Shown here piece by piece: positions 2,187-24,077 of a stretch of 24,351 nt of DNA. The DNA comes from Elusimicrobiota bacterium. GTDB taxonomy: Bacteria > Elusimicrobiota > Elusimicrobia > UBA1565. Each line of letters opens with the position of its first letter. Positions within the stretch are counted from its first letter, which is position 1. The translations under genes and the position numbers were made by a program. The stretch spans positions 1-24,351 of the forward strand of contig JBDREN010000156.1 in NCBI GenBank assembly GCA_043819795.1, written 5' to 3'. The notes under the pieces were generated by a model, which saw only the letters and a list, made by a program, of their open reading frames with translations, had not been told where the DNA came from and did not search any database.

Positions 2187-2954
2187 TCATTGCCCGACGC
2201 GCCATTTGTTCTCGTAGACCCACTTCCAGTAGTCCCGGCGGGAGAGGCGCGAGGCCGCCGGCTCGTCGAGGACCATCTGCGCGCGCGGATGCAGCTGCAG
2301 CGCCGAGCCGGGCACCTCGGCCGTGACCGGGCCCTCGACGACGCGCCGGACAGGCTCGGCCTTCGCATCGCCCGTCGCCAGAAGGAGGAGGCGCCGGGCC
2401 TCGAGTATGGTCCCGATGCCCATCGTGATGGAGAACCGCGGGACGCTCTCGGTGGAGGCGCGGCTTCCGGCATAGTCCGCGATCGTTTGCGCCTCCAGGG
2501 TCTTTATGCGCGTGCGCGAGCCCAGAGAGGAGCCCGGCTCGTTGAAGCCGATGTGGCCGTTGCGGCCGATCCCGAGGATCTGAAGGTCGATGCCGCCCTC
2601 GATCCGGATGCGGGCTTCGTACTCTTCCGCCGCCTTTTCAAGGTCCGGAGCGTCTCCTCGAAGGAGATGGACGTTGCCGGGGCCGACCCGCAGCTTGTCC
2701 AAGAGATGCTCGTGAAGGAAGCGGTGGAAGCTTCTCTTGTCGCGCGGCCCCATGCCCACGAACTCGTCGAGGTTGAAGAACCGCGCCCGGCCGAGATCGA
2801 GCGCCGCGCCCGTCACGCGGGCATAGAGTCCCAAGGGGGTCTTGCCAGTGGCCAGGCCGAGGACCAGGTCGGGCTTGCGCCGGAGGCTCTCCCGGACGAT
2901 GCCCAGGGCGGTCTCCGCGACGGCCTCGGCGTCCGGCTGGATGATCACTTCCAT
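2187..2954 (-). CDS. nagB: Glucosamine-6-phosphate deaminase
   Basis: True start is MEVIIQP at 2954 (255 aa), inside the longer 2187..3515 ORF. Motifs VLGLATGKTP, FNLDEFVG, GGIDLQILGIGRNGHIGFNEPG, ITMGIGTI and PGSALQLHP. Overlaps the nagA 3' end by 10 nt. Confidence 0.96.
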   Translation of the reverse strand: MEVIIQPDAEAVAETALGIVRESLRRKPDLVLGLATGKTPLGLYARVTGAALDLGRARFFNLDEFVGMGPRDKRSFHRFLHEHLLDKLRVGPGNVHLLRGDAPDLEKAAEEYEARIRIEGGIDLQILGIGRNGHIGFNEPGSSLGSRTRIKTLEAQTIADYAGSRASTESVPRFSITMGIGTILEARRLLLLATGDAKAEPVRRVVEGPVTAEVPGSALQLHPRAQMVLDEPAASRLSRRDYWKWVYENKWRVGQ

Positions 2955-4096
2955 CGGATGCCTCCCACGATCACGGCCGCCACGCTCCACTTCCGGCCGA
3001 AGAGGACGAGGTCGGCCGGACGGCCCGGCCGGATGACGCCCTGTCTCAGCCCCAAGGCCCGCGCCGGATTTGCCGATGCCAGGGGAAGCGCCCGTTCGGG
3101 CGGCAGGCGGAGGTCCTGCGCGAGAGCGCGCGCGACGTCCAGCAGGGAAACGGCGCTTCCGGCGAGGAGTCCGCTTCCCGCCAGGCGGATCTCTCCCCGG
3201 CGCACGTCGTACTGGTCCGCGCCCACGCGGTAGCGTCCTTCCCGGGCCCTCAGGGCGAAGGTCGCGTCGCTCACCAGTACCACGCGGTCGGCGGGCTTGC
3301 AGCGCAGCACCAGCTCCGCGGCGCCGCGGCTGAGGTGCCGGCGGTCGTAGATGAGCTCGCAGGAAAGCCGGTCGTCGAGGAGCGCGCGCTCCAGGAGCCC
3401 CTCCTCTCGGTGGTGGAAGCGGCGCATCGCGTTGAATAGATGGGTGACGTGCCGGATCCCCGCGCGCGCGCCCCGCTCGAGCTCGCGGGCGCTGGCGTCG
3501 GAGTGCCCGGCGCACATGAGGATGCCGTGGTCCCGCCCGCAGCGGATCACCTCCTCGGCGCCCGGAAGCTCGGGGGCGATCGTCATCATCTTGATCAAGC
3601 CGCGGAACTCGCTGAGCAGGGAGCGGAATTCCTTGAGCGAGGGCCGGCGCAAGAACTCCTTTCGGTGCGCGCCGCGCCTGGCCGGGTTGAGGTAGGGCCC
3701 CTCTAGGTGGGCGCCCAGGATCTTCGCGCCGCCTTCGCGTTTCGCGGCTTCGCCGATGCGCCTCAGGGCCGCCCGGGTACGCGCGAGCGGCAAAGAGAGG
3801 AGCGTGGGGACGTACGCGGTGACGCCTTCCTCCACCAGGGCTTTGCCGACGCCGCGGATCTCCTCCGGGTCCGCCTTATCGAAGCTCTTGCCGAAGCCCC
3901 CGTTGATGTGGATGTCGATAAGGCCCGGAGCCAGCAGGCGGCCGCGGGCCTCGATGAGCTCGGCGTCCTTCGGCCGCCGGATACTTCGGGAGACCTCCCG
4001 GATCCGTCCCCCGGATACCAAGACCGAGGCGCGCGGGAGGACCCGGTCTCCCGCGAGGACGCGCGCGTCACGTATGAGAAGAGGCGGCTGCCGCAT
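2945..4096 (-). CDS. nagA: N-acetylglucosamine-6-phosphate deacetylase
   Basis: 383 aa amidohydrolase with PGLIDIHING, GAHLEGPYL, GAH, MTIAPE, GHSDA, VTHLFNAM, VSDA, LAGS and NPA. Directly upstream of nagB. Confidence 0.95.
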   Translation of the reverse strand: MRQPPLLIRDARVLAGDRVLPRASVLVSGGRIREVSRSIRRPKDAELIEARGRLLAPGLIDIHINGGFGKSFDKADPEEIRGVGKALVEEGVTAYVPTLLSLPLARTRAALRRIGEAAKREGGAKILGAHLEGPYLNPARRGAHRKEFLRRPSLKEFRSLLSEFRGLIKMMTIAPELPGAEEVIRCGRDHGILMCAGHSDASARELERGARAGIRHVTHLFNAMRRFHHREEGLLERALLDDRLSCELIYDRRHLSRGAAELVLRCKPADRVVLVSDATFALRAREGRYRVGADQYDVRRGEIRLAGSGLLAGSAVSLLDVARALAQDLRLPPERALPLASANPARALGLRQGVIRPGRPADLVLFGRKWSVAAVIVGGIRWK

Positions 4097-4341: not shown

Positions 4342-4455
4342 TTATCGAGTCATCCCAGAGGAGCGTGTCCTCTCAATTGGGACGTTCTCGGCCCGAGGGA
4401 AGACCGCCGCATGAACAAGAGGATATCCGGGATCCGGCGCAATTCGGAGGAAGAG

Positions 4456-7400
4456 ATGAAGAATAATCACCTTTCCGCTTTTCCGTTCATCTTGGTCGCC
4501 GCCTTTCTGGCGGGAGGCGCGTCCTTGCGAGCCGCCGTGATATCCACTTGCCAGGACCTGAAGAACATGGACTGCGGGCAGTCCCACCAGCTCGCCGCGG
4601 ACATCGACGGAAGCTGCCTGGACGCGCCTCTGTGCCGCAACGGATATTCTCAGGTCTTCGACGGCCAGGGGCATACCGTAAGCGGTATCACCATCGACCT
4701 CTCGGGGAGCAACACGGGAGGCCTGTTCGCCACGCTCCGGACGGGCGGCAAGATCATGAACCTCGGCGTGAGGGACGTCACGATCAGGAACGCCCAAAAC
4801 GGCGCAGGATTGGTCGGCTCTCTTTATGCGGGCTCTGCCGTGGAGAGATGCTTCGCCGACCGGGTGAAGATCTCGGGAACGGGATCCCAGTTCGGTGGCT
4901 TGGTCGGATTCACGCGAGGAAGGATAACGGAATCCTATGCCACCAACGTCCGCATCACGAAGTACGGTCAGGACTATGATAGCGCCGCCGCGGGCGGCTT
5001 GACGGGCTACTGCACCGGGGGATGCGTCATCGAGCGCTCCTACGCGGAGGGCTTCTTGGTCGGCACGAAGGAGATGGGCGGCCTGACGGGGATGGTGTGG
5101 CAGCCGGGCCCAAACATCATCGAAGACTCCTACGCGGTGGTGGACGTGGACGGCAGCCGGTACCTGGGAGGCCTCATCGGCAAGCTCTATTATACGCCCG
5201 ACAACCCGTACTGGACCATCAAGAACTCCTACGCCGGGGGCAGCATCACGGCTTCGCAGTGGAGCATCGGACCCGTATGCGGCAATCCGGGCTCGCTGCA
5301 GGGCGAGAACACCCATGGCCCGTCGTGCGGGAGCACCAGCTGCACGCCCGGCCCCGAGCTCAAGAGCCAGTCCACCTACGCCGGGTGGGATTTCACGAAC
5401 ACCTGGGCCATCCATGAGGGGGTGAGCTACCCCTACCTTCGGTGGCAGAACCTCCCTCCGTGCACGGACGCCGACGGCGACGGGCGCAACGCGGAAGGGA
5501 GCGCCTGCGGGCACCAGGACAACTGCCCCGGCGTCTCGAATCCGGGCCAGGAGGACCAGGACATCGATTTCCTCGGCGACGCGTGCGATCCCACCCCGTG
5601 CGGCCAGTACGCGAACATGTCCGGCGGCGCGTGCCAGTGCGAGGCGTACCATGCGGACACCGACGGCAGTTGGGAGACGGGCTGCGAGGACCCTGATTCG
5701 GACGGGGATACGGTCGGTGACAGCGTGGACAACTGCCCGAACACGGCTAACACCGGCCAAGCCGACACCGACGGCAGCGGCACCGGGGACGCCTGCAACA
5801 GCGCGAGCGACCCGGACGCGGACGAGTTCGAGTCCGGTTGGACGGCGGCCTGTAAGGGCGGCCAGAACACGGGCTGCGCGGACAACTGCCCCGACGCGGC
5901 CAATCCCTCCCAGGCGGACACGGACGGCAGCGGCATCGGGGACGCCTGCAACGCGGCGCAGGATCCGGACGGCGACGAGTATGAGGACCTCTACGACAAC
6001 TGCCCCACCGTCCAGAACCCCGCGCAGAACGTCGAGGTGTGCCGGCCGGTGGTCGTCATCAACTCGATCACGCAGGATGGGGGCGCGTACCTCGAGGTGG
6101 ACGCTGAGATCAGCGACCCCAACGGCGATCCGCTGAGCGGAGAGGTCTCCGTCTTTACCGGGGGCGCTGTGACCCCGGCGACTATGGATCAGGAGAGCCC
6201 GCACCTGGAGGTGGAGAACGGGAACTACATCACGCGGCAGCACTGGGACGCCTTCGGAGACTTCGGGGGCCCGTTGGTGGACAACAGCTGCTCTCCTCAC
6301 AGCTTCTATGGAGGCGACAGCTGCATCACGTCCAAGGGCGGGACCATGACCTCCCTGCACCTCGAGTTCGCGTGCGAGCCGTGCGACACGGCCACCGCGT
6401 TCATGGACTATTTCGCGCCGCGAGACACCTGCAACGTTTATAGCTGGGAGATGAGCGGACGCGACATGTGCCTCCGGTCCAAGGAGACCGGCGACACATT
6501 CGACTACATCATCCTGTCATGGGGAGATAACGGAAAGCCGATCAAGCTGGTGCCCGGTCCCGTTGAAGCGGTCGTCCTGGACGCTGCGAATCCCCACTTG
6601 GTCCTGGAGGACGGCAACTATGTCGTCAGGCAGCACTGGGATCCCTACAATTACGCCGCCGGGCCCTTGGTGGACAACAGCTGCTCTTCTCACAGCTTTT
6701 GGGATGGCGACAGCTGCATCGCCTCCAAGGGCGGGACCATGACGTCCCAGCACTTCGAGTTCGCCTGCGAGCCCTGCGACAGCGCCACCCAGTTCATGGA
6801 CTACTTCGCGCCCAAGGACACCTGCGGGATGGACGCATCGGAGATCGGCGGAAGAGACATCTGCATCAGGTCCAAGAGCTCGGGGGCCAAGTTCGCGTAC
6901 GTCGTGCTCGGCTGGAACAACCCCGGCGAAAACGAAGGCGCCATCAAGCTGCTGGACCCGCAGAGCGGCGTCCAGACGCTCGCCACGCTGAGCTACTCCG
7001 GGACCCTGCAGGGCTCGTTGGATCTCGCCGCGGCCGGCCTGGTGTCCGGGGGGAACTACTCCCTCAAGATCACCGCCGACGACGGGAAAGCCGCCGTCGA
7101 GGGTTCCGCCACCGAAGAGTTCTTGTATCAGGGAGAGAGCTTTCTGGTCTTCGGCATCCCCAACAGGGCGCCGGTCCTCGCTCCCGTGCTGGAGGAGTGG
7201 GCGCAAAGGTACAACGGCCCCCTGGACGGCCCGGACTACGGCTACGCCGTGACCGCGGACGCCTCCGGGAATGTATATGTGACGGGCGGCAGCCCCGGAC
7301 CTACCGGGAACTGGGATTACGCCACCATCAAATACGACGCCGGCGGGAACCAGCTATGGGCAGCAAGGTACGACGGCACAGCGTTCTACGCCGATTTCGG

Positions 7401-10400
7401 ACTGGCGATAGAGGTGGGCGCTTCGGGAAGCGTGTATGTGACGGGCAAGAGCGGCGGGGCCGGGAGCGGCCAGGACTACGTGACGATCAAGTACGACGCC
7501 GGCGGCAACGAGCTCTGGGTGGCCCGGTACAACGGCCCGGGCAACAGGGACGACGAAGCCGCCGCCATGGCGCTCGACGCCGCCGAGAGCGTCTACGTGA
7601 CCGGCAGCAGCCGGGAGAGCGACAATCTCGACGACTACGCTACGGTGAAGTACGACACGAACGGCAACCAGCTGTGGGTGGCGCGTTACGAAGGCACGCC
7701 CAGCGGCTCGGATCAGGCCCAGGCCCTGGCGATAGACGACTCGGGGAACGTCTACGTGACGGGTCGCAGCCGCGGGACCGACGCCGGCGACGACTACGCC
7801 ACGATCAAGTACGACGCGAACGGCAACCAGCTGTGGGTGGCGCGCTACGATGGTCCCGCCGGGGCCGACGATTACGCCAAGGGGATCGCGGTGGACGGCT
7901 CGGGGAACGTCTGCGTGACGGGGGTTAGCCCCGGAAACGGGTCGAACCGGGATTATGCCACCGTCAAATACGACGCCGGCGGAAACCAGCTGTGGGCGGC
8001 GCGGTACAACGGCCCCGGCAGCATCCCCGGAAACTCCATCGATGAGGCGACCGGCATCGCCGTGGACGGCTTAGGGAACGTCTACGTGACGGGGGACAGC
8101 TACTCGACCGGAGCGAACTACGACTATACCACGCTGAAGTATGATCCGGACGGCAACGAGCTCTGGATGGCGCGCTACAACGGCCCCGCGGACTTCTCCG
8201 ATTACGCCGCCGCTATCGCCGTGGATGATTCGGGGAGCGTGTACGTGACGGGCCACAGCTGGGGCGGGGGGACGGCGGACGACTGTGTAACGGTGAAGTA
8301 CGACCCGGGCGGAAACGAGGCCTGGGTGGCGAGGTACAACGGAGCCGCGAGCGGCTATGACTGGGGCCGCGCCGTCTTCGTGGACGGTCCGGGCAATGTC
8401 TACGTCACGGGGCAGAGCGCCGGGACCGGGACGCAGGATGACTACGCCACGGTCAAATACTTCCAGCAGGCGGACGCGGCCACCGATAAAGGCGTGCCGG
8501 TCACGATCACCCTCAGGGGCTTCGATCCCGACGGGGACGCGCTCACGTTCCAGATCATGTCGTATCCCGCCGGCGGCTCGCTGAGCGGCGTGACCCAGCT
8601 GACCCCCGCCTCCGCGCAGGTCACCTACACCCCGAATTCGGGCTTCTCGGGACAGGACTCCTTCTCCTTCAAGGTCAACGACGGGGAGCTCGACTCGAAC
8701 GTCCTGGCCATGCCCGTCACCGTCAACGAGGGCAACACCGCGCCGGTCGCCGTCGCCGACAGTTACGCGACCGACGAGGACACGACCCTCGCGCCCGTCG
8801 GGTCCGTCGGTCCCGACTCCACGATCCAGAGCGTGGCGGGCAACGGCAGCCAGGGCTACTCCGGCGACGGGGGGCCGGCGACCGGCGCGGCGCTCCGCTT
8901 CCCCAACGACGTCGCGATCGACGCGGACGGCAACGTGTATATCGCGGACGCCAACAACCACCGCGTCCGCAAGGTGGACGCCGGGGGGACGATCACGACC
9001 TACGCGGGAACCGGTTCCGCCGGCTACTCGGGCGACGGAGGGCCGGCGACGAGCGCGCGGCTGGCCAGCCCCGTGGCCCTGGCGCTGGATGCCGCCGGCG
9101 ACCTCTACATCGCGGAGGTCGGCAACAAGCGCATCCGCAAGGTCGTCGCGCAGACGGGATTTATCACCACCGTCGCGGGCAACGGGGCGACCGGGTTCTC
9201 CGGCGACGGCGAACCGGCCGCGAGCGCGTCGTTCAACGGTCCCTCCGGCCTGGCTTTCGACGCGGCCGGGAACCTCTACATCGGGGACCTGAACAACCAC
9301 CGCGTCCGCAGGGTCACGCCGGCGGGCATCATCGACACCTTCGCCGGGAGCGGGCCCGACGGCATCGGCGCCGGCGGCTTCGGCGGCGACGGCGGCCCGG
9401 CCACGGCGGCGAGGTTGAACCAGCCCCTGGGCGTCGCCTTCGACGCGGCGGGAAACCTGTACATCGCGGACGCCACCAACCGGCGGATCCGCAGGGTCGA
9501 TCCCGGCGGCACGATCATGACCGTCGCCGGAGACGGCACGACCGGCTTCTCCGGTGACGGGGGCCCGGCCACGGACGCGAGCCTGAACATCCCCAGCCAT
9601 GTGGCGGTGGACGGCGCCGGCAACGTATTCATCGCGGACATGGCGAACAATCGCATCCGCGTGCTGGCTCCGGACGGGACCATATCGACCGTGGTGGGGG
9701 ACGGCACGACCGCCTTCTCGGGAGACGGGGGCCCCGCGGGGAGCGCCTCGCTGAGCAATCCGCACGGGATAGCCTTCGACGCCGCCGGGGACCTCTACAT
9801 CGCTGACTACAGCCACCAGCGCATCCGAAAGGTTGATGCGCCCCTTGGCACCGTGCTCGCCAACGATACGGACGCGGACGGCGACTCCCTCACGGCGGCG
9901 CTGGTGGATGACGTCTCGCACGGCTCGCTGACCCTGAACGCCGACGGGAGCTTCGCGTACACCCCGGCGCAGGACTACAGCGGGACGGACTCGTTCACCT
10001 ACAAGGCGAACGACGGAGCGGCGGACTCGGATCCGGCCACGGTCACGCTGACGGTCAACCCCGTCAACAACCCGCCGGTGGCCGACGACCAGGACGTCGT
10101 GACGAACGAGGACACGCCGGTCGCGATAACGTTCGGGGCGACCGATCCGGACAGCGATCCGTTGACCTTCGAGATCGCCTCCGGGCCTTCCCACGGCGCC
10201 CTCTCCGAGATCGACGGCGACCAGGTGACCTACACGCCGGGGGGCGATTACAGCGGCTCGGACAGCTTCACCTTCAAGGCCAACGACGGGGAGCTGGACT
10301 CGGAGCCCGCCACCGTCGCGCTCACGGTCGAAGCGATCAACGATCCGCCGGTCCTGGCCGAGCTGCCGGACCTGACGCTCGACGAGGACACGGCCATCCA

Positions 10401-13400
10401 CCCCGGGCTCAACGACCTGCTGGACTTCGCCTCCGACGCGGATTCGTCGGCGGACGGTCTGGAGTTCAGGATCGTCAATATGCAGGATGTCATCGACGCT
10501 CTGGGGCTCTCCGACGGCTCGACCGGCGGGGAGGCGGACATCCCGGCCGTGACTATCGGCGAAGATCCCGATAGCGGGGAGTTCGCCCTGCGAGGGGACG
10601 GCCAGGCCCACGGCAACACCTTCCACGTCCATCCGCGAAGGGAGCTCTCCGGGTCGGTGACCGTGACCGTCGAGGCCCGGGACGACGGAGGCGCGGTGTC
10701 CGAGCCGCGGTCCTTCACCCTCACGATCAACCCGGTCAACGACCCGCCGGTCGCCGACGACCGGAGCGTCGTGACGAACGAGGATACGCCGGCCTCGATC
10801 ACGCTCACGGCTTCAGACGAGGATTCCGCGGCTCTGGGCTACACCCTCTTGACTCAGCCCACCAAGGGGACGCTGACGGGAACGCCTCCGGACCTCACCT
10901 ACACCCCGGGCGACAACGAGAACGGCTCGGACAGCTTCACGTTCAAGGCGAACGACGGGACGACGGATTCGAACGAGGCCACGGTCTCGATATCGATCAC
11001 TCCGGTCAACGACCTACCCATGGCGGCCGACGACGCCTACGAGACGGACGAGGACGCGGCCCTGACGGTCTCGGAACCGAGCGCCGGCCTTCTGGCCGAC
11101 GACACGGACGCCGAAGGAGACTCCCTCACGGCGTCGCTGGCGGTTGACGTTTCGCACGGCACGCTGGAGCTCAACGCGGACGGCACGTTCACGTACACGC
11201 CGGCTCGGGACTACAACGGGGAGGACAGCTTCACCTACAAGGCCAACGACGGCCAGGACGACTCCGAGCCGGCCACGGTGACGCTCACCATCAATGCGAT
11301 CGAGGACGCGCCGGTCGCCGCGGACGGATCGGTGACGACGGAAGAGGACACGGAATCGGGTCCTATCGCCCTGGACGCCGAAGACGCGGACGGCGATCCG
11401 ATCAGCTTCGAGCTGAAGGGCTGCCCGGCGCACGGCACGCTGAGGGATTCCGCCGGCGCGGCTGTCGGGTGCGTCGGTTCCGGGATGGTCGCCCTCTACT
11501 CGTTCGACGAGGGCTCCGGGGCGACGTCCGCGGACGGGAGCGGCAACGGCAACGACGGCGCCGTCTCGGGTTCTCCCGGCTGGACAAGCGGCATGGCCGG
11601 AGGCGCTCTGGAGTTCAGCGGCGACGACCAGATCACCGTGCCCCACAGCGCCAGCCTGGGCATGACGGAGGCCCTCAGCGTGGAGACGTGGGTCAGGCCG
11701 ACCGGCTACTCCTCCTGCTACGACACCCTCAGGGTCGTCTACAAGTTCTCTACCGATGGCAGGTGGGACGGCTGGAACCTCGACATCAAGTGCGGCACGG
11801 GGCTGCTCCGCGTGGAGCTGGTGGACACGGTCGGAAAGCGATATCTGTACTATTCCGATCGTCCCGTCCCGGAGAATGTATTCAGCCATGTGGCGTTCAC
11901 CTGGGACGGCGACGCGGTCAAGTTCTATATCGACGGCGAGCCCGCCGGCGAGACGCCCACGACGTTCGGCCCCATCCCCGCCCATACGGGTCCCATGATC
12001 ATCGGCAAGATCCCGTGGACGGCGTACAGGGGCGTGATAGATGAGCTCGCGGTCTACGATAGGGCCCTCGGCCCCGAGGAGGTGGCTGCGCGGTTCAACG
12101 CTCCGGGCGCCGGCTTCGCGACCACGGTCACCCCGCCGTTGACGTACACGCCCGGGGCGGACTACAACGGTCCGGATTCCTTCTCTTTCGTGGGGAACGA
12201 CGGCAAGGCGGACAGCAACGAGGCGACCGTCGCGATCACGGTCAACGCGGTCAACGACCCGCCGGTCGCCGCGGACGCTTCGGTCACGACCGACGAGGAC
12301 GCTCCGGCGGCGATCACGCTCTCCGCCTCGGACGTGGAGTCGCCGAGCCTGGACTACACGGTCCTGACGCAGCCGGAGCACGGGACCCTCAGCGGGACGG
12401 CTCCGGACCTAACCTACACGCCCGACGCCGACTACAACGGAAGCGACTCCTTCACCTTCAAGGCGAACGACGGCGAGGCGGACTCCAACGAGGCTACAGT
12501 GTCGATCTCGGTCACGCCGGTCAACGACGCGCCGGCGGCCCGGGACGGCTCCATCGCGACCGACGAGGACACGGAGTCGGGACCCATCGCCTTGGAGGCC
12601 GACGATGTGGACGGCGACGCGCTGAGCTTCTATATGGGGAGCTGCCCGGCCCACGGGACCCTCAAGGACGCCGGCGGCGCGGCCGTTGACTGCGCGGGCT
12701 CCGCGATGCCGGCGGGGCTGGTCGCGCTCTACTCCTTCGACGAGGGCTCCGGGATGACCGCCGCGGACGGCAGCGGCAACGGCAACGACGGCTCCATCTC
12801 CGGCTCGCCCGTCTGGGCGGGCGGCGTGGCGGGCGGGGCCCTTCAGTTCAGCGGCGACGATCAGATCACCGTGCCCCACAGCGAGAGCCTGGGCATGACG
12901 GAGGCCGTCAGCGTGGAGACGTGGGTCAGGCCGGACACCTATTCTTGCGGGGACACGTATAGGATCATTTACAAGTTCTCGACCGACGGCAGATGGGACG
13001 GCTGGAACCTCGACCTCAAGTGCAGCTCGGGGCTGCTCCGCGTCGAGCTGGTGGACATGGCCGGAAAGCGGTACCTGTACTATTCGGATCGTCCCGTTCC
13101 GGTGAATGTGTTCAGCCATGTGGCGTTCACCTGGGACGGCGGCTCGGTGAAATTCTATATCGACGGCGAGCCGGCCGGCGAGACCGCCACGGCGTTCAGC
13201 TCCATCCCCGCCCACACGGGCCCCATGATCATCGGGAAGATCCCCTGGACGGCCTACAGGGGCGTGGTCGACGAGCTCGGGGTGTACGACCGCGCGCTCA
13301 GTCCGGAGGAGGTGGCGGCGCGGTACGACAATCCGGGCGCCGGGTTCGCGCCTCCGCTCGATCCGCCGCTCAGCTATATGCCCGAGGCCGACTTTGGCGG

Positions 13401-16400
13401 CTCGGACTTCTTCACCTTCACCGCGAGGGATGGGTCGGCGGAGAGCACGGCGGGCACGTGGCAGATCACGGTCACCCCGGTCAACGACCCGCCGGTGGCG
13501 TACGGCCAGCAGCTGACGACGGATGAGGACGCGCCGGCGGCGATCACGCTCTCCGCGTCGGATCCGGAGCAGGACGTCATCTCGTACTTCATCGTCCCCG
13601 GCCCCGCGCATGGGACCTTGAGCGGGACAGCTCCCGACCTGACCTATACCCCCGATCTCAACTACAACGGGCAGGACTCCTTCGGCTTCAAGGCGGCGGA
13701 TACGCCCGCGGCCCTCCCCGAGGGGCTGGCGCACTATTGGAACTTCGACGACGGGACGGCGCGCGACTTGGCGGGCTCCAACCACGGGACGCTCCACGGC
13801 GCGGCCCCCGCCGCTTCCGGCCGGGTGGGCGGCGCGATGAGCTTCGACGGCAGCTCCCACATCGACGTGGGCACGATCGGCGACGGGCCCTCGTTGACGA
13901 TCTCGGCATGGATCAAGAGCGACGGCACCGGACAGGATCAGGAGATCATGGCCCAGGGCTCGTGGGGCTCCGGCACCTGGCAGACCTGGCTGGTCCCATG
14001 GGGCTCCGCCGGGACGGCGTTCGGTGTCGGCGGGCCCGGCACCTACGGGGGGCCGGACCTCACGGACGGCCAATGGCACCAAGTGGTGGGCGTCTACGAC
14101 GATTCGGACTCGAGCCAGACGCTCTACGTGGACGGCCAGCACGTGATCACGACCGTGCGGGGCTACACGGCCAGCCCGCGGCAGACCTACATCGGCTCCA
14201 GGCCGGGCTACTCCAAGAACTTCAACGGGCTGATCGACGAGGTGGCCGTCTACGCCCGGGCGCTCTCGCCGGAGGATATCCAGCAGGCGTATCAGGACGG
14301 ATCGCAGAACATCGGCCTGCTCTACGACCTGAGCACGAGCGTGGCGAGCATCGAGGTGACCATACTGCCGGTCAACGACGCGCCGGTCGCGCAGAGCCAG
14401 GCGGTCCAGACCGACGAAGACGTCTCCGTCGCGATCGTCCTCGCGGCCGAGGATCCGGACGGAGACCCCTTCGACTACGCGCTAGGCGACCCTCCGAGCC
14501 ACGGGACGCTGAGCGGGGACTTGCCGGAGCTGACCTACACCCCGGCGCCCGACTACAACGGGAGCGATTCGTTCACGTTCACGGCTTCCGACGACAGCCT
14601 GGGATCCGAACCGGCCACGGTGAGCGTGTCCGTCGCCTCGGTCAACGACCTGCCGGTGGCCGAGGGCCAGCAGGTGACGACGGACGAGGATACGCCGGTC
14701 GCCTTCACGCTGGGCGCCTCGGACGCGGACGGCGATCCCCTCGAGTTCACGGTCACGGAGCCGGGGCACGGGACCCTGAGCGGGACCGCGCCGGACCTGA
14801 CCTACACCCCCGACCTGGACTACAACGGCCCGGACTCCTTCGAGTTCCAGGCCGACGACGGGCGGCCTCCCCACGGCATGGTCCACTATTGGAATTTCGA
14901 CGACGGTACGGCGCGCGACCTGGCCGGGTCCAACCACGGGACGCTCTATGGGGCGGCGCCCTCCGCTTCGGGCCGGGTCGGCGGCGCGATGAGCTTCGAC
15001 GGCGGCTCGCACATCGACGTGGGCACGATCGGGGACGGGCCTTCTCTGACGATCTCGGCGTGGATCAAGAGCGACGGCACCGGTCAGGACCAGCAGATCA
15101 TCGCCCAGGGCTCGTGGGGCTCCGCCACCTGGCAGATCAATCTGGTCCCCTGGGGCTCCGGCGCGACCGCGTTCGGCGTCGGCGGGAGCGGCCTTTACGG
15201 GGGTCCGGACCTCACGGACGGCCAGTGGCACCAGGTGGTGGGCGTCTACGACGATCCGAGCTCGCGCCAGACGCTCTACGTGGACGGCCAGCAAATCGCT
15301 ACGGAAGTCCGGGGCTACGCGAGCGGCCCGAGAGGGACGTATATCGGCTCCAGGCCGGGCGCGACCAAATACTTCAACGGTCTGATCGACGAGGTGGTCA
15401 TCTATGCCCGGGCGATGTCCGCGGAAGAGGTCCAGGGGGCCTACCAGAACGGATCGAACGGCGTCGGCCCGTACCCTAGCCCGAACCCGGCGACCGTGAC
15501 GCTCACGATCGAACCGGTCAATGACCCGCCGGTCGCAGACGACCTCCAGGTCACGACCGACGAGGACACCGACGCCCTCATCGCTTTGACCGGCTCGGAC
15601 GTGGAGGGCGCCGGGCTCAGCTTTTCAATCGCGTCTTTGCCCGGAGAGGGCAAGCTGTTCCAGAGCACAGCCCAAGGCCAGCGCGGCGCCGAGATCACGG
15701 CCGCCGGGCCGGTCACCGACAGCGGCGGGCGCGTGATCTACGCCCCGCCTCAGGACGCCAACGGCGGCTCGTTCGAGCCCGGCTCGGAGCCGTTCACGGA
15801 GTTCGCGTACACGGCCAACGACGGGGGCGCGGACTCGGCCGGGGCCACGGCGGGGATCGTCGTCAATCCGGTCAACGACCCGCCGGTGGCGTACGGCCGG
15901 CAACTGACGACGGACGAGGACATCCCGGTGGCGGTCACGCTCTCCGCGTCGGACGCGGAGCAGGACGCCATCTCGTACTTCGTCTCACCGGGCCCCGCGC
16001 ATGGGACGCTCAGCGGGACCGCTCCCGAGCTGACCTATACCCCGGATCTGAACTACAACGGCCAGGACTCCTTCGGCTTCATGGCGGCGGACAGGCCCGG
16101 CGTTCTGCCCGAGGGCCTGGTCCACTATTGGCCTTTCGACGACGGGACGGCGCGCGATCTGGCGGGCTCCAAGCACGGGACGATCAACGGGGCGGCGCCC
16201 GTCCCCGTGGGCCGGGTGGGCGGGGCGATGAGCTTCGACGGCAATTCCCATATCGACGTGGGCATGATCGGCGACGGTCCCTCGTTGACCATCTCGGCGT
16301 GGTTCAAGACCACCGGCACCGCCTATTCCCAGGAGATCATCGCCCAGGGACCCTGGAACTCTCAGACTTGGCAGGTGCTGCTCAAGGGGCGCCGGGGAGC

Positions 16401-19400
16401 CATCGAGTTCGGCAGCGGCGGGGCCACCCAGGCGGGGCCGATCCTCTCGGACGGCCAGTGGCACCACATCGCGGGCGTCTACGACGATTCGAGCTCGGCC
16501 CAGAAGCTCTACGTGGACGGCCAGTACCTGAATGCGATCAACCGGAGCTTCACCGCCGGCCCGAAGCAGACCTACATCGGGTCTCGGCCGGGCACCACCA
16601 TGAACTGGACCGGGCTGATCGACGAGGTGGCAGTCTACTCCCGGGCGCTCTCCGCCCCGGAGATCCAGCAGGCGTATCAGGACGGATCGCAGGGCATCGG
16701 CCTGCCTTTGGACGGGAACACGAGCGTGGCGACCATCGACTTGACCATCTTGCCGGTCAACGACGCGCCGGTCGCGCGGAGCCAGACGGTCCAGACCGAC
16801 GAGGACGTTCCCGTTTCCATCGTCCTCTCCGCGGAGGATCCCGAGGGGGATTCCATCGACTACGCCCTCGGCCAGCCTCCGATCCACGGGACGCTGAGCG
16901 GGGACATGCCGGAGCTGACCTACACCCCGGCGCCCGACTACAACGGGAGCGACTCGTTCACGTTCACGGCCTCCGACGGCAGTCTCGGGTCCGAACCGGC
17001 CACGGTGAGCGTGTCCATCGCCCCGGTCAATGACCTGCCGGTGCCGGACGACCAGCAGGTGACCACGGACGAGGACACGCCCGTCGCGATCACGCTGAGC
17101 GCTTCGGACGTGGACGGCGACCCCATCGAGTTCGCGGTGGTCTCGGAGCCCGGCCACGGCACCCTGAGCGGGACCGCTCCCGATCTGACCTATACTCCCG
17201 ATCCTGACTACAACGGCCAGGACTCCTTCGGCTTCGAGGCCATGGACAGGGCTGGCGTTCCCCCCGAGGGGATGGTCCACTATTGGTCCTTTGACGACGG
17301 GACGGCGCGCGACCTGGCCGGCGCCAACGACGGGACGATGAACGGAGCGGTGTCCACGCCTTCCGGCCGGGTGGGCGGGGCGATGAGCTTCGACGGCAAT
17401 TCCTATATCGACGTGGGCATGATCGGCGACGGGCCCTCGTCGACCATCTCGGCGTGGTTCAGGACCACCGGCACCGCCTATTCCCAGGAGATCATCGCCC
17501 AGGGACCCTGGAACTCTCAGACCTGGCAGGTGCTGCTCAAGGGGCGCCAGGGAGCCATCGAGTTCGGCAGCGGCGGGGCCACCCAGGCGGGGCCGAGCCT
17601 CTCGGACGGCGAGTGGCACCACATCGCGGGCGTCTACGACGCCGGGGACTCGGGCCAAAAGCTCTACGTGGACGGCCAGCACCTGAGAACGATCACTCGG
17701 AGCTTCAGCGCCTCCCCGCGGCAGACCTACATCGGGTCTCGGCCGAGCACCACCATGAACTGGACCGGGCTGATCGACGAGGTGGCCGTCTACGCCCGGG
17801 CGCTCTCCGCCGCGGAGATCCAGCAGGTTTATCAGGACGGTCTGAACGGGGTCGGCCCGTTGGCCGCGGCGAACTGGAATCAGGCGACCATCGCGCTCAC
17901 GGTCGACCCGGTCAACGACGCGCCGGTGGCCGACGACCTGCGGGTGGCCACCGATGAGGATACCGACGCCCGCATCACCCTGACCGGCTCGGACGTCGAG
18001 GGCTCCGGGCTGAGCTTCTCGATCGCGTCGCTGCCCGGAGGGGGCAAGCTGTATCAGAGCACGGCCCACGGCGAGCGCGGCGCCGAGATCACGGCCGCCG
18101 GGACGCAGGTCACCGACAGCGGCGGGCGCGTGATCTACGCCCCGCCTCAGGACGCCAACGGCGGGTCCTTCGCTCCCGGCTCCGACCCGTTCACGGAGTT
18201 CGTCTACACGGCCAACGACGGCGCCGCGGACTCGGCCGGAGCCACGGTGGGGATCGTGGTCGTCCCGGTCAACGACCCGCCGACCCAGCCCGGCAAGCCG
18301 ACCGTGGTCAAGGCCGTGACCAACGAGGCGAGCCATGAGGTGTCCTGGCTCAGCTCGACCGACATCGACAGCAATACTATCTACTACCGGGTCTACATGA
18401 GCCACAACGGCGGGAACTTCCTGCTCGTAACGGCGCCTACGCTTATGACCAAGTATGTCAACGGCAACCTGCTCGAAGGGACGTACGAGTACCAGGTGGA
18501 GGCCGTAGACGACGCCGGGGGCGCGAGTCCCCGGGCGGCTTCGGACCCGGCGATCGTCGACCGGACGCCTCCGATCGTCTCGGTGGGCGCTCCGCCGGAC
18601 GGGATGAAGACCGCCTCGCCCGACGTGGCGGCCCGGGTGGACTACTTCGACCCGGGCGGGGACCTGGCCAACCTTATCAGCCGGTGGTCCGGCGAAGGGG
18701 ACTATCGGGACTCCGCGGGCGCGAACGACGGGACTCCGGGGGGGAGCGTGTCCTTCGACGCTGGCAGAGCGGGCCAGGGTTTCCGGCTCCGGAACAGCGG
18801 CGGTGTGCGGGCGGTCGGGGAGTATCCCGTCGCCCAGGCCAATGAGATCACCATGATGGGCTGGATCAAGCTCGACACGCACTCGGGCTACAGCGGGCTG
18901 GTGAGCTCGGAGGGCTGCTGCCAATACCGGATCCTGGTGAGCCCGGACCACCGGCTCTTCTACAACGCCGGCACGCACATCGATATCCCCGTCGGCCCGG
19001 CGCTTGCCTTGGGCGAGTGGCATCACGCCGCCATGACGATCCGTGGAGGCCAGACGGCGAAGATCTACCTGAACGGCGAGCTGATCCACGAGAGCGAGCA
19101 GGGCGTGCCCGCCCAGCTCCCGCCGCTGACGACCGTCCTCCTGGGCGTGGGCGAGAACATCGGCACGCACGGGATCGAGGACGGGATGGTGGACGAGGTG
19201 GAGGTCTACAGCCGGGCGCTCACGGACGAGGAGGTCCGCGTCCGCTACGAGGACCATCCGCTCGGGGTGGTGGCGAGCGGGATGGATACGGCCACCCTGG
19301 CGGTGACGCGCAACGGCCAGGACGTGACGGGCGAGTTTACGGCCGGCGGAGCGGCGGCCTCGGCCCAGTTCCTGGGTCTGCCCGACGGGGAGTATGCCCT

Positions 19401-22400
19401 CTCGGCCTCGGTGAGCGACCTAGCGACCAACCAGGGGGCCTCGGCGCCGGTCAAGTTCACGGTGGACACCACGCCGCCAACGATCACGCTCACCGCGCCG
19501 CTGGCGGGCCAACAGTTCATCGCCACGCAGAATACGATCCCGATCGGCTTCAGCGTGGCGGACAACCTGGACCCGTCGCCTCAGGTCGTGCGCGCGCAGC
19601 TGATGCTGGAGGAGGCGCGGAGCGGCGCGCCCGGCAAGGAGCAAGGTCCGGTGGACGTGACGAGCGGGCAGGCGCCGATCGAGCCCCTAAGCCTGCAGGC
19701 GGGGCTCTGGAAGCTTTCTGTGACGGCCGCGGACTGGGTGGGCAACCAGAGGACCGAGGTGACGCCGGATCCTTATTTCGAGGTGATCCACGACATCAAG
19801 CCTCCGCGGACCACGGTGACGATCGCCGAGCCGAGGTACCCGCCGGAGCCGGCTCCGGGCGACCCCGAGCCCGAGTTGGTCTACCTTACGGGCGCGACTT
19901 TCGTGATCGCCTCTTCGACCGACGACCTGGTGACGGTCGGCGACAACGCGGGCCTCGGCGTGGCGACGCAGACCATCAAGGTGGGCGGGAACGTGAGGTT
20001 CGAGTACCGTAACCCGAGCCCGGCGGTCGGCGAGAGCTTCGTGAAGAGCTTCCAGCTGGGCGACGTCGACGGACCGCTGACGCTCCTGGCCGAGGCCGAG
20101 GACGTCCTGGGTAAAATGGAGACGGGCCAGGCCTTGAGCCTGCACATGGACAACCTGGCGCCGGTTATGGGCCATACGTTCAGCGCGGAGCCCGTGGTCC
20201 GGGCGCCCAAGAACGAGAAGTGGTTCGCGGCTGCGTTCCAGATCATATGGGAAGCGAACGACGGCACGGGTTCGGGCGTGGCGCATCTGGACGGGCCGAC
20301 GGACGTGACGGACGACGCCTTCGATGCGCCGTACACCGGGCGTTCGGCGGACAACGTGGACAACGAGCGGACTTTGACGGTGCGCGTGAACCTGGACACG
20401 ATCGCGCCCGTTGTGGACGCCGGGGGCGACGTGACCGTAGAGGAGGGCGTCGAGGTGGAGTTCTCGGGCACGGTGACCGACAACCTCGACGAGGTTGCGC
20501 AGTACGGGTGGACGTTCGGCGACGGCGGGATCGCGGACCAGGAGCCGAAGCCGACGCACACGTATCTCGATGAGGGGATTTATGAGGTGACGCTGACGGC
20601 GACCGACCATGCTGGACATACGACCTCGGACTCGCTCACGGTGACGGTGCTGAACGCCGCGCCGGTCGTGACGTCCGCGGCCGCCGAGCCCCAGCCTGTG
20701 GGCGAGGGGAGCGCGTTGACGATCACCGCCGCATTCACGGACCTGGGCATCCTGGACACGCACGCGGCCGAGATCGATTGGGGCGATAACACGACATCGG
20801 CGGCGAGCCTGACCGATGAGGGCGGCTCCGGGAGCCTGACGGCGGAGCACGTGTACGCCGACGATGGAATATACACGGTGAGGGTGACGGTGAGCGACGA
20901 CGACGGCGATTCCGGCGAGGCGACGCTCGACGTCACGGTGGACAACGCGGCCCCGACGATCGAAGCCGGGGCGGACCAGGCCGTGGACGAGGGCGGCGTG
21001 ATCAGCCTGGCCCCGTCCACGTTCCACGACCAGGGCACGCTGGACACGCATACGGAGACGATCAACTGGGGCGACACCACGCCGACGGAAGCGGGCGTTG
21101 TGAGCGAGTCGCCGTTCGGCCCTCCAGGGGACACGGCTGGCGCGAACGGCACCATATCGGGCATCCACGTGTACGCCGACAACGACACCTACACGGTGAC
21201 GGTCTGCGTAAAGGATGACGATAACGCCGAGCAGTGCGATGCGCTGACCGCTACGGTGAACAACGTGGCTCCGACGATGGAGGCGGGGACCGATAAGATC
21301 GCGGCGGCGGACGGGCGCCTGATCGTGGGCGGCGGGATCCCCGTCCGGAACATGGATGTCTGGCGGCTCGGACAGAGCGGCCTGCAAAGCGTGGTGATCG
21401 GGCCGGAGGAGCCGGTGACGGCGCCGCCGATCATGTTCCACGACCAGGGCACGCTGGACACGCACGGCGTGCTGATCGAGTGGGGCGACGACACGTCCGA
21501 CGCGGCTGTGGTAACGGAGTCGCCGTCAGGTCCTCCCGGCTTGACGGCAGGGGCGGACGGGATCGCGCGGGCGCAGCATCAGTACACGGCCAACGGGATC
21601 TACCCGCTGAAGGCGACGGTGACCGACGACGACGGCGGTTCGGTGTTCGGCGGCTACTCGGTGACGGTGGACGTGGTCCCGCCGGCGACGATGATCTCGC
21701 ACAGCGGGAACGTGAGCGCCGATTCCGGCATCCCCGCCCAGGCCACGGTGTTCCTGGACGCCGACGCGATGAACGCGCTGAGCGCGGAGGACCCGGTGGA
21801 CAACGAGATCGCCTTCGGCGTGCAGTGGACGTTCCGCAGGGACCTGTCGTTCGAGGGCTCGGACTCGACGTACACGGTGCACGAGGAGGCGTTCAGCCTG
21901 GCGGAGGAAGGCGTGCACATCCTCGAGTACTTCAGCGTGGACAAGCGCGGCAACGAAGAGACGCATAAGCTCATCACGATCGGCGTGGACCATACGCCGC
22001 CCATCCCGGCGCTGGAGGTGGGCGATCCGAAGTACCTGGCGTTCGGCCTGACGTTCATCGAGCCCGAGACGCCGATCACGCTGTCGGCCGAGGACCCGGT
22101 GACGTCCGACGTCGCTTCGGGCGTGGACCGGATCACGTACCGGATAGACGGCGGGGAGCTTCAGACCTATACGGAGCCGTTCCCGCTGGAGCCGGGCACG
22201 CACATCATCGACTACGGCGCGGTGGATAAAGTCGAGAACGAGCGTCGGGAGACGTTCGCGGTGGCCGTGGCGAACTACGAGTTCCACCTGACGGGCGTTT
22301 ACCAGGTGGACGGGACGGGCACGTCGGACATCAAGGGCCTTGTGCAGTCGAACGGGCTTGTGGACCTCGGGGGCTCCAACCGGGTGGACGGGGACGTGAC

Positions 22401-23328: not shown

Positions 23329-23414
23329 GCGCCGGGGGCTCTTGATAAGGTAAAATCTCAGCCACATCCGGCGCATGTCGCCGGAGGCTGATTTTGTTTC
23401 CCGGGACCGAGGCG

Positions 23415-24077
23415 ATGAAGCATCAGATGACCGGCAAGCGCGGGGAGGTCTGGAGCATGCGGCTCTCCGCTCTGGGCGTCATGCTGTCCGTCGCGGGGAT
23501 CCTGGTCCTGATCGTCCCGTCTTTGAGGGCGGGCACGCCGTGGCATATCGCGGGTTTTCTGATCTATGGGTTCGGCCTCATCAGCGTGTTCGGCGCCAGC
23601 GCCCTCCATCACGGGTACGAGGGCTCGGAAAGGGCCAATTTCGTCCTCCGCCAGATCGACTACAGCGCGATCCCCATCATGATCGCCGGGACCGCGACGC
23701 CGTTCTGCCTGATCCTTCTGCGGAACTCCTTTGGCTGGACCGTGCTGGCGGTCTTCTGGGTGCTGGCCTTGTTCCTGATCGTGCTGAAGAACACGTGGCC
23801 GAACGTCCCCAGGTGGCTGATCACCTCTCTATTCCTGGGCATGGGGTGGATGGGTGTCCTCCTGGCCGATCCCCTCGTGCGCCATACGGGCTGGACCGGC
23901 GTCATCCTCGCGGTCGCGGGCGGCTTGTTCTACTCGGTGGGCGCCTTGATCTTCCTTCTTGAAAAAGACGGCGTGCCGCGGGGCCGGTTCGGCTTGCATG
24001 ATGTTTGGCATCTGTTCGTCCTGGCGGGCACGGCCACCCATTTCTTCCTCGTCTATCGCTATCTGCTGCCCGTTTAG
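23415..24077 (+). CDS. Hemolysin III / PAQR family membrane protein (YqfA/TrhA-like)
   Basis: About 7 hydrophobic segments, with SALHH, IDYSAIPIMIAGTATP, GGLFYSVGA and HDVWHLFVLAG. Start is uncertain: TTG 23394, ATG 23415 or ATG 23427. Confidence 0.92.
   Translation: MKHQMTGKRGEVWSMRLSALGVMLSVAGILVLIVPSLRAGTPWHIAGFLIYGFGLISVFGASALHHGYEGSERANFVLRQIDYSAIPIMIAGTATPFCLILLRNSFGWTVLAVFWVLALFLIVLKNTWPNVPRWLITSLFLGMGWMGVLLADPLVRHTGWTGVILAVAGGLFYSVGALIFLLEKDGVPRGRFGLHDVWHLFVLAGTATHFFLVYRYLLPV

Follow-up and report, generated by a model that had tools for sequence, protein, structure and literature searches.

The 24,351-nucleotide contig JBDREN010000156.1 of an Elusimicrobiota bacterium (assembly GCA_043819795.1), referred to below as the window, carries one giant open reading frame (ORF) on its forward strand. 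The frame spans positions 4411-23328 in the ORF list, is free of stop codons for 18.9 kb and encodes 6,305 amino acids (aa) from its first ATG. With a probability of about 0.7, the protein is a long stalk of immunoglobulin (Ig)-like domains, where a whole insert (LamG, NHL propeller or Cys module) opens a loop in nine and an SBBP propeller possibly does so in a tenth; it is likely an exported surface adhesin, and its heads are predicted to project sideways. The original prediction, made from the letters of the window, had proposed ten nested inserts at six different sites. Nine of these inserts and five of the sites are supported by the present analysis, and the count of six sites is kept with a reservation for the SBBP site, which gained support neither from shuffles nor from the structure model.

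Pfam and NCBIfam scans of the giant ORF revealed GLUG, TSP_3, SBBP, NHL, Big_9/Cadherin_4/5 (tandem-95), Laminin_G_3, Big_13, PKD and OmpL47-type families and a tail of the type IX secretion system (T9SS) type A. Between aa 915 and 4618, the protein consists of 17 Big_9/cadherin-like units, nine of them uninterrupted (one recognised by motifs only) and eight interrupted, the SBBP unit included; tandem PF17963 and NF012211 units exceed the curated cut-offs. Besides this string, there are two further interrupted Ig-type units, the hosts of a Cys tandem and of the LamG7 domain. The motifs by which the sites had been delimited all lie where they were reported, in one open frame: SDPNGDPLSGEVSV (6112), YSLKITADDG (7057), NRAPVL (7162), ATDKGVPVTITL (8479), TDEDTTL (8770), VLANDTDADGD (9853), DRTPP (18559), VDYFD (18637) and SGMD (19276), with the intact counterpart of site 2 at 11008.

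Host units of the stalk and their inserts

The split Big_9 units were compared with two profiles of intact units, one built from six intact copies of the giant ORF and the other derived from database relatives (439 intact units). At site 2 (8728-10059), where an NHL propeller occupies 8794-9852, the flanks match the complementary profile columns 3-22 and 21-89. Site 3 is represented by two units opened mid-domain: in the unit at 11296-12246, the flanks of LamG1 (11455-12132) match columns 1-51 and 41-90, and in that at 12517-13476, the flanks of LamG2 (12673-13359) match columns 1-50 and 45-89. Site 4 occurs in the units 13477-14367 (LamG3 at 13705-14325), 14638-15513 (LamG4 at 14866-15474), 15868-16752 (LamG5 at 16096-16710) and 17023-17907 (LamG6 at 17251-17865). 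The upstream flanks of these LamG domains match columns 1-76/78 and lack the last strand, before which the domain is inserted. The split points of sites 2-4 fall after columns ~22, 51 and 76 of 90, and the halves rejoin to units of 89-91 aa with no overlap and no loss.

After deletion of the insert, the units are 89-97 aa long and outscore the units as they stand in 8/8 Big_9 cases. In a stricter control, the profile came from the database relatives only, the junction scan was also applied to the controls and the shorter half was shuffled (n=40). None of the 40 shuffles equalled the real score for NHL, LamG1, LamG2, LamG4, LamG5 and LamG6, and one did so for LamG3; the expectation that deletion of the insert would restore a complete repeat was borne out for these seven units. 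The last strands behind LamG3-6 resemble those of intact units in sequence and score 10.2, 14.1, 11.3 and 11.3 bits, the 95th percentiles of the null being 8.8 (n=54) and 7.6 (n=88). The split hosts are 32-69% identical to intact copies. The highest value belongs to the site 2 host and the intact long-form copy at 11002; the NHL insertion point corresponds to a loop with a 7-aa bulge in the long-form copies. Acidic motifs, which we take to be cadherin-like calcium sites, are kept beside the inserts.

Uninterrupted units, identified with the intact-unit profile, stand between the split ones. Four occupy 10060-11295, one of which, a 133-aa unit at 10333-10731, was assigned by motifs only. Single intact units were found at 12247-12516, 14368-14637 and 16753-17022, and long ones at 15514-15867 and within 17908-18555, where an FN3-like domain follows (fn3 23.5 bits, below the cut-off of 25).

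Structure models covered sites 1 and 6 and the LamG3 unit of site 4. For aa 3023-3409 (the LamG3 unit and its neighbour), AlphaFold2 gave a mean predicted local distance difference test (pLDDT) score of 81 and 74-85 for the host, with a strand at 289-299 behind the LamG domain in a block of pLDDT 74; the alignment contained 38 rows, none of which was a separate intact copy spanning the split.

Site 5 is a DxxPP-type, Big_13-like Ig unit (18556-19464) with LamG7 at ~18652-19266. The profile for comparison was built on six intact paralogous units encoded elsewhere in the genome; the flanks match its columns 3-39 (before the insert) and 26-99 (after it). The insert-deleted unit scores 64.5 bits, and the shuffle maxima were 47.6 and 36.0 (40 shuffles each).

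At site 6, paralogue flanks and models delimit an N-half of three predicted strands (6043-6165) and a C-half (6967-7155), which enclose two tandem modules with six Cys each (6166-6576 and 6577-6966). An intact copy of this host was not found among the sequences compared. Its flanks recur in five other ORFs of the genome, holding a single Cys module in two and an insert of ~110 aa in three. In the context model, the flanks form confident strands (pLDDT 74-87), and the Cys modules mostly have pLDDT <=60. Modelled as separate chains, the two halves scored 0.62, compared with 0.01 for the best of three controls; the mark of 0.62 is reached by 116/157 solved pairs and by 2/215 mismatched pairs. The contacts of the two-chain runs agree by at least 98%, with a partner pLDDT of at least 78. 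The strand pattern of the models suggests an Ig-like host, which has no family match. The proposed folding of the two halves into one sandwich is favoured by the predictions for site 6, where they are predicted to co-fold, and for the LamG3 unit, where the last strand is predicted, and not for the SBBP site, where the first strand remains undocked.

The 6-Cys module of site 6 (~130 aa) is a candidate new binding domain. It occurs at 6166-6966 of the window and on contigs C151, C230 and C55 of the same genome (G000), although the C55 inserts match it only at a BLASTP E of 1.1. It has no Pfam match, and relatives outside the genome were not found in the protein collection, the metagenomes or 60 related genomes; Atlas matches below 0.9 serve as leads only.

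Site 1 possibly contains an SBBP propeller nested in a split Big_9 unit. Here, an uncertain candidate first strand (7153-7179) is followed by a propeller that matches PF06739 and is predicted as a closed ring (7180-8463), and then by the host remainder (8464-8727), which covers columns 10-90 of the intact-unit profile. Model residues 377-810 match propellers, with a Z of 39.5, a root-mean-square deviation (rmsd) of 2.3 and 326 aligned residues for the best of the matches listed.

Relatives, known split-domain adhesins and the origin of the inserts

The stalk unit itself is like that of the giant proteins with Big_9, Cadherin_4-5 or tandem-95 repeats (PF17963, PF17803, PF17892, NF012211) and scores over the curated cut-offs. 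In a sample of 249 long database relatives (150 and 99 new ones) with ~6,300 intact Big_9 units, ten split units were detected in nine proteins, with a maximum of two in each, compared with 8/17 interrupted units in the giant ORF; the counts for the relatives are lower bounds, as the sample is enriched for intact-repeat proteins and the detector misses some splits. By this sequence comparison, the giant ORF is an outlier. As payloads, the relatives carry an SdiA-regulated propeller (six proteins, related to each other), a C-type lectin (two proteins) and FN3 (one protein, near column 51). In unrelated database proteins, the propeller (P0002, P0005, P0056, P0159, P0162, P0171) and the lectin (P0147, P0194) occupy an extra socket near columns 33-37. 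A split before the last strand was not found in any of the 249 relatives, and none of the 113 LamG domains present in 28 of them lies inside a Big_9 unit; the same is true of the 24 LamG-bearing proteins among 120 short ones. Eight first-strand candidates from the database were rejected because their strand scores were low (-5.8 to 3.8).

The opening of an Ig-like stalk domain by a whole domain has already been described for RTX adhesins. In the accessible sections of PMC12077191, split Ig-like domains hold ligand-binding domains off the axis of the adhesin, and both this paper and bioRxiv 10.1101/2025.09.30.679566 cite Graham et al. 2024 (Proteins 92:933) for the design; the earlier remark that it had not been described as a systematic design must therefore be withdrawn. 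According to the accessible text of the preprint, RTX adhesins typically have two or three such domains, with six carbohydrate-binding modules (CBMs) in Ab3a, and a figure legend places the split at either of two points, behind the first strand or ahead of the last two; the words 'LamG', 'laminin' and 'propeller' do not occur in its main text. In the accessible parts of two other papers, the split domain of FrhA is named (PMC10523503) and Big_9 is listed among stalk domains (PMC8286594). No description of LamG domains or propellers nested in Big_9 units, or of the design in Elusimicrobiota, was found in the literature reached, which excluded subscription journals and bioRxiv supplements; payloads of this kind may already be listed by Graham et al. 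2024.

Like A. hydrophila AhLap, V. cholerae FrhA and A. baumannii Ab3a, the giant protein has Ig-like stalk domains opened by a whole domain, several split domains in one chain and intact extenders between them. A host opened in this way, with flanks that make up one complete unit, was found at sites 2-6 for nine inserts. The giant protein probably works like a split-domain adhesin, yet it is not an RTX adhesin. Its payloads are LamG domains, NHL and SBBP propellers and a Cys module, whereas those of the RTX adhesins are a PA14-like CBM, vWFA, a peptide-binding domain and a beta-roll. Its heads span aa 586-4952 of 6,305 (~70% of the chain) instead of a distal region, and their projection is predicted, while the off-axis insert is known in RTX adhesins. 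A T9SS-type tail replaces the RTX and type I secretion elements: HemolysinCabind was not matched when the whole protein was scanned with Pfam, and the N-terminal 900 aa gave GLUG and TSP_3 only in Pfam and NCBIfam, with no N-terminal retention module. The RTX split positions are not matched either, as the giant ORF uses the mid-strand-B bulge, the D-E hairpin and the point before the last single strand, and only the uncertain SBBP site lies after the first strand; strand names are taken from the LamG3-unit model, and the positions compare roughly because the RTX and Big_9 hosts may not be homologous.

The best fold match of the LamG3 model, among the matches listed, is domain 4 of the arabinanase AbnA (PDB 5hon; Z 25.1, rmsd 2.4, 191 residues aligned). 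By its title, that structure was solved with an arabino-oligosaccharide; it is 19% identical to LamG3, and a common fold does not show the ligand.

LamG1 and LamG2 are 83% identical, LamG3-6 are 61-84% identical, and identity across the three LamG groups is 23-31%; the grouping of the host units partly parallels that of the LamG domains. Because identity is high within the groups and low between them, the ten inserts may have arisen through about six insertion events into permissive loops, followed by duplication of host-plus-insert units, and the repeated independent insertions assumed earlier overcount the events. The suggested survey of homologues revealed the same loops empty or with a different payload in paralogues. 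The NHL loop in the ORF on contig C129 (L037:1-1800) holds FG-GAP repeats at least twice, C-halves that match occur in C18 and C169, and a 10,012-aa ORF on contig C15 has two LamG domains in the LamG7 loop, flanking an intact copy. In the database protein P0025, FN3 stands at the LamG1/2 loop. An orthologue with the nested LamG1 unit was not found among 300 genomes of the phylum.

Proposed export and adhesion, and competing explanations

The true start of the protein is probably ATG 4456, 15 codons inside the longest-ORF start, because GGAGG lies directly 5' of it and a signal-peptide-like hydrophobic stretch (judged by eye) directly 3'. The C-terminal domain (23011-23325) matches the T9SS type A sorting family TIGR04183 at 26.7 bits (cut-off 23). 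The tail has 12 close paralogues in the genome, where tails of the TIGR04183 type give 26 matches, 25 of them over the cut-off; eight tail-related loci belong to Elusimicrobia (six), to a 'bacterium' (one) and to Gemmatimonadota (one, 26%). Six PorV-like matches in the genome exceed the cut-off; of the other families sought for the cognate machine (SprA, PorV, PorU), PF14349 and PF01364 had no match there, their controls being equally blank, and C25/PorU was not found. The giant ORF is like T9SS cargo adhesins in that its sorting domain exceeds the cut-off and its genome carries genes resembling those of PorV and SprA; it differs in its position outside Bacteroidota, in a SprA-like match below the cut-off, in the PorU search with its blank control and in that export is a prediction here. 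These sequence matches suggest a T9SS-like export route outside Bacteroidota.

The genome contains 153 LamG matches in 62 ORFs and ten open frames of more than 6,000 aa; members of its giant-protein family have the C-terminal 1,000-1,300 aa in common, and their upstream parts vary. Open frames of 20,647 aa (G092:C17) and 17,912 aa (G144:C12) with many LamG matches are present in genomes of the same family. Elusimicrobiota are described as prone to huge proteins in the accessible part of PMC11573180.

The halves of each host are predicted to refold into one sandwich, from which the continuity of the stalk would follow. Export would use the Sec route from ATG 4456 and, at the outer membrane, a route of the T9SS kind; the C-terminal end would then be anchored, and the GLUG region would lie most distally. 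The LamG heads likely bind glycans, by analogy with proteins of similar fold; the four similar heads LamG3-6 would provide avidity and the unlike heads range. The continuous rod with multivalent side heads, as originally proposed, holds with respect to nesting for nine of ten inserts, and a rod with side heads is the likeliest shape. A broader reading can be offered tentatively, in which Big_9 is a multi-socket scaffold with at least four, perhaps five, loops that take whole domains. One socket would receive a propeller of the NHL or FG-GAP kind, a second LamG or FN3, and a third host the Cys module. The lineage would then build giant fibres exported by a T9SS-like route, with exchangeable heads along the whole length; these would be true bottle-brushes and not rods that bind by a distal region.

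Several results weigh against the nested, exported stalk. In controls without the junction scan, shuffles equalled the real score in 9/200 cases for LamG3 and 3/200 for LamG5; the units of site 4 exceed the shuffle means by only 3-9 bits, and LamG3 was equalled by one shuffle in the stricter control. The models came without coordinates, so the pairing partner of the last strand and the direction of the heads are not readable from them; the fold-search matches listed are LamG domains or propellers, the host folds not being among them. The co-fold score of site 6 may arise from likeness to solved Ig folds. At the SBBP site, shuffles equalled the real score in 7/40 cases in the stricter control and in 10/200 without the junction scan, and the candidate first strand scores 6.4 bits compared with 10.4-21.3 for other unit starts. 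That strand has pLDDT <50 and is undocked in the AlphaFold model, in which the host reaches 54-66 (one other alignment row); in the database protein P0350, a Big_9 unit starts at column 7 behind a LamG domain with no split. As for export, the SprA-like ORF (1,889 aa, contig C134) scores 159 of 200 bits, below the cut-off, over 1,165 of its 1,889 aa.

An alternative is a string of beads, in which recombination has left half-repeats as flanks that fail to close into one domain around the insert. This arrangement is plausible for the SBBP site, and the absence of LamG from Big_9 units in the relatives, long and short, also speaks for it. As a general explanation, it is quite improbable: the halves of sites 2-4 join to units of regular length with neither overlap nor loss, their hosts have kept their identity to intact copies, the halves of site 6 co-fold in two predictors and identical breakpoints occur on other contigs. 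The last observation bears equally on an assembly chimera of repeat-rich reads, which would be compatible with a draft genome of 241 contigs and with a protein that forms a singleton cluster and whose gene is spanned by no public record. A chimera is scarcely credible for a frame of 18.9 kb that has no stop and keeps a G+C content at third codon positions of 0.85-0.94 across all segments, with repeats that are diverged and not identical; moreover, the junctions at 16096 and 17251 are bridged with 0 differences by short contigs from run X1, possibly the sample of origin.

The same nesting could also serve another function, the protein being a scaffold, either released or kept at the surface, for collecting polysaccharides or tethering prey and not a cell-attachment fibre. 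The match of LamG3 to a module of a secreted arabinanase, the divergent nagA and nagB upstream, the abundance of LamG in the genome and the lack of a C25/PorU match (with its blank control) are consistent with this function, and a role in prey adhesion and digestion is suggested for giant proteins of Omnitrophota in the accessible part of bioRxiv 10.1101/2023.11.21.568195. It is nevertheless unlikely, since Pfam and NCBIfam gave no hydrolase or other enzyme family for the giant protein, which is made up of stalk repeats and lectin-type folds.

The putative surface adhesin with interrupted stalk domains extends the split-domain design beyond type I-secreted RTX adhesins to another phylum, with a different export signal and other payloads. 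Since the principle has been published, the surprise is limited; the new elements are heads along ~70% of the chain, insertion into as many as four loops of a single host fold, payloads of the LamG and propeller types and the T9SS-type tail. Intact and split copies of one repeat in one protein allow a loop-by-loop comparison, by which nature itself maps the loops of a cadherin-like domain that tolerate insertions; such a map can be used in studies of adhesin evolution and in protein design. Domain annotation misreads such proteins, as the halves score as partial repeats.

Other parts of the protein and neighbouring genes

The stalk is preceded by a region of GLUG motifs (4531-5445; PF07581, 38.3 bits, cut-off 20.5), the putative distal tip, and by thrombospondin type 3 repeats (5461-6042; PF02412). 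Behind the LamG7 unit, a string of Ig-like, PKD and OmpL47-type domains with a DUF7305 region extends over 19465-22950; by family scans and paralogue comparison, it is common to the paralogues.

The N-terminus of a 268-aa ORF at 1254-2060 is signal-like, and neither Pfam nor NCBIfam has a family that matches this ORF. The nagA gene (over the cut-off) and the nagB-like gene lie at 2187-4096 on the reverse strand, divergently oriented to the giant gene, and tdh is located at 43-1068. Downstream of the giant gene, a membrane protein of the TrhA/hemolysin III family is encoded at 23394-24077.

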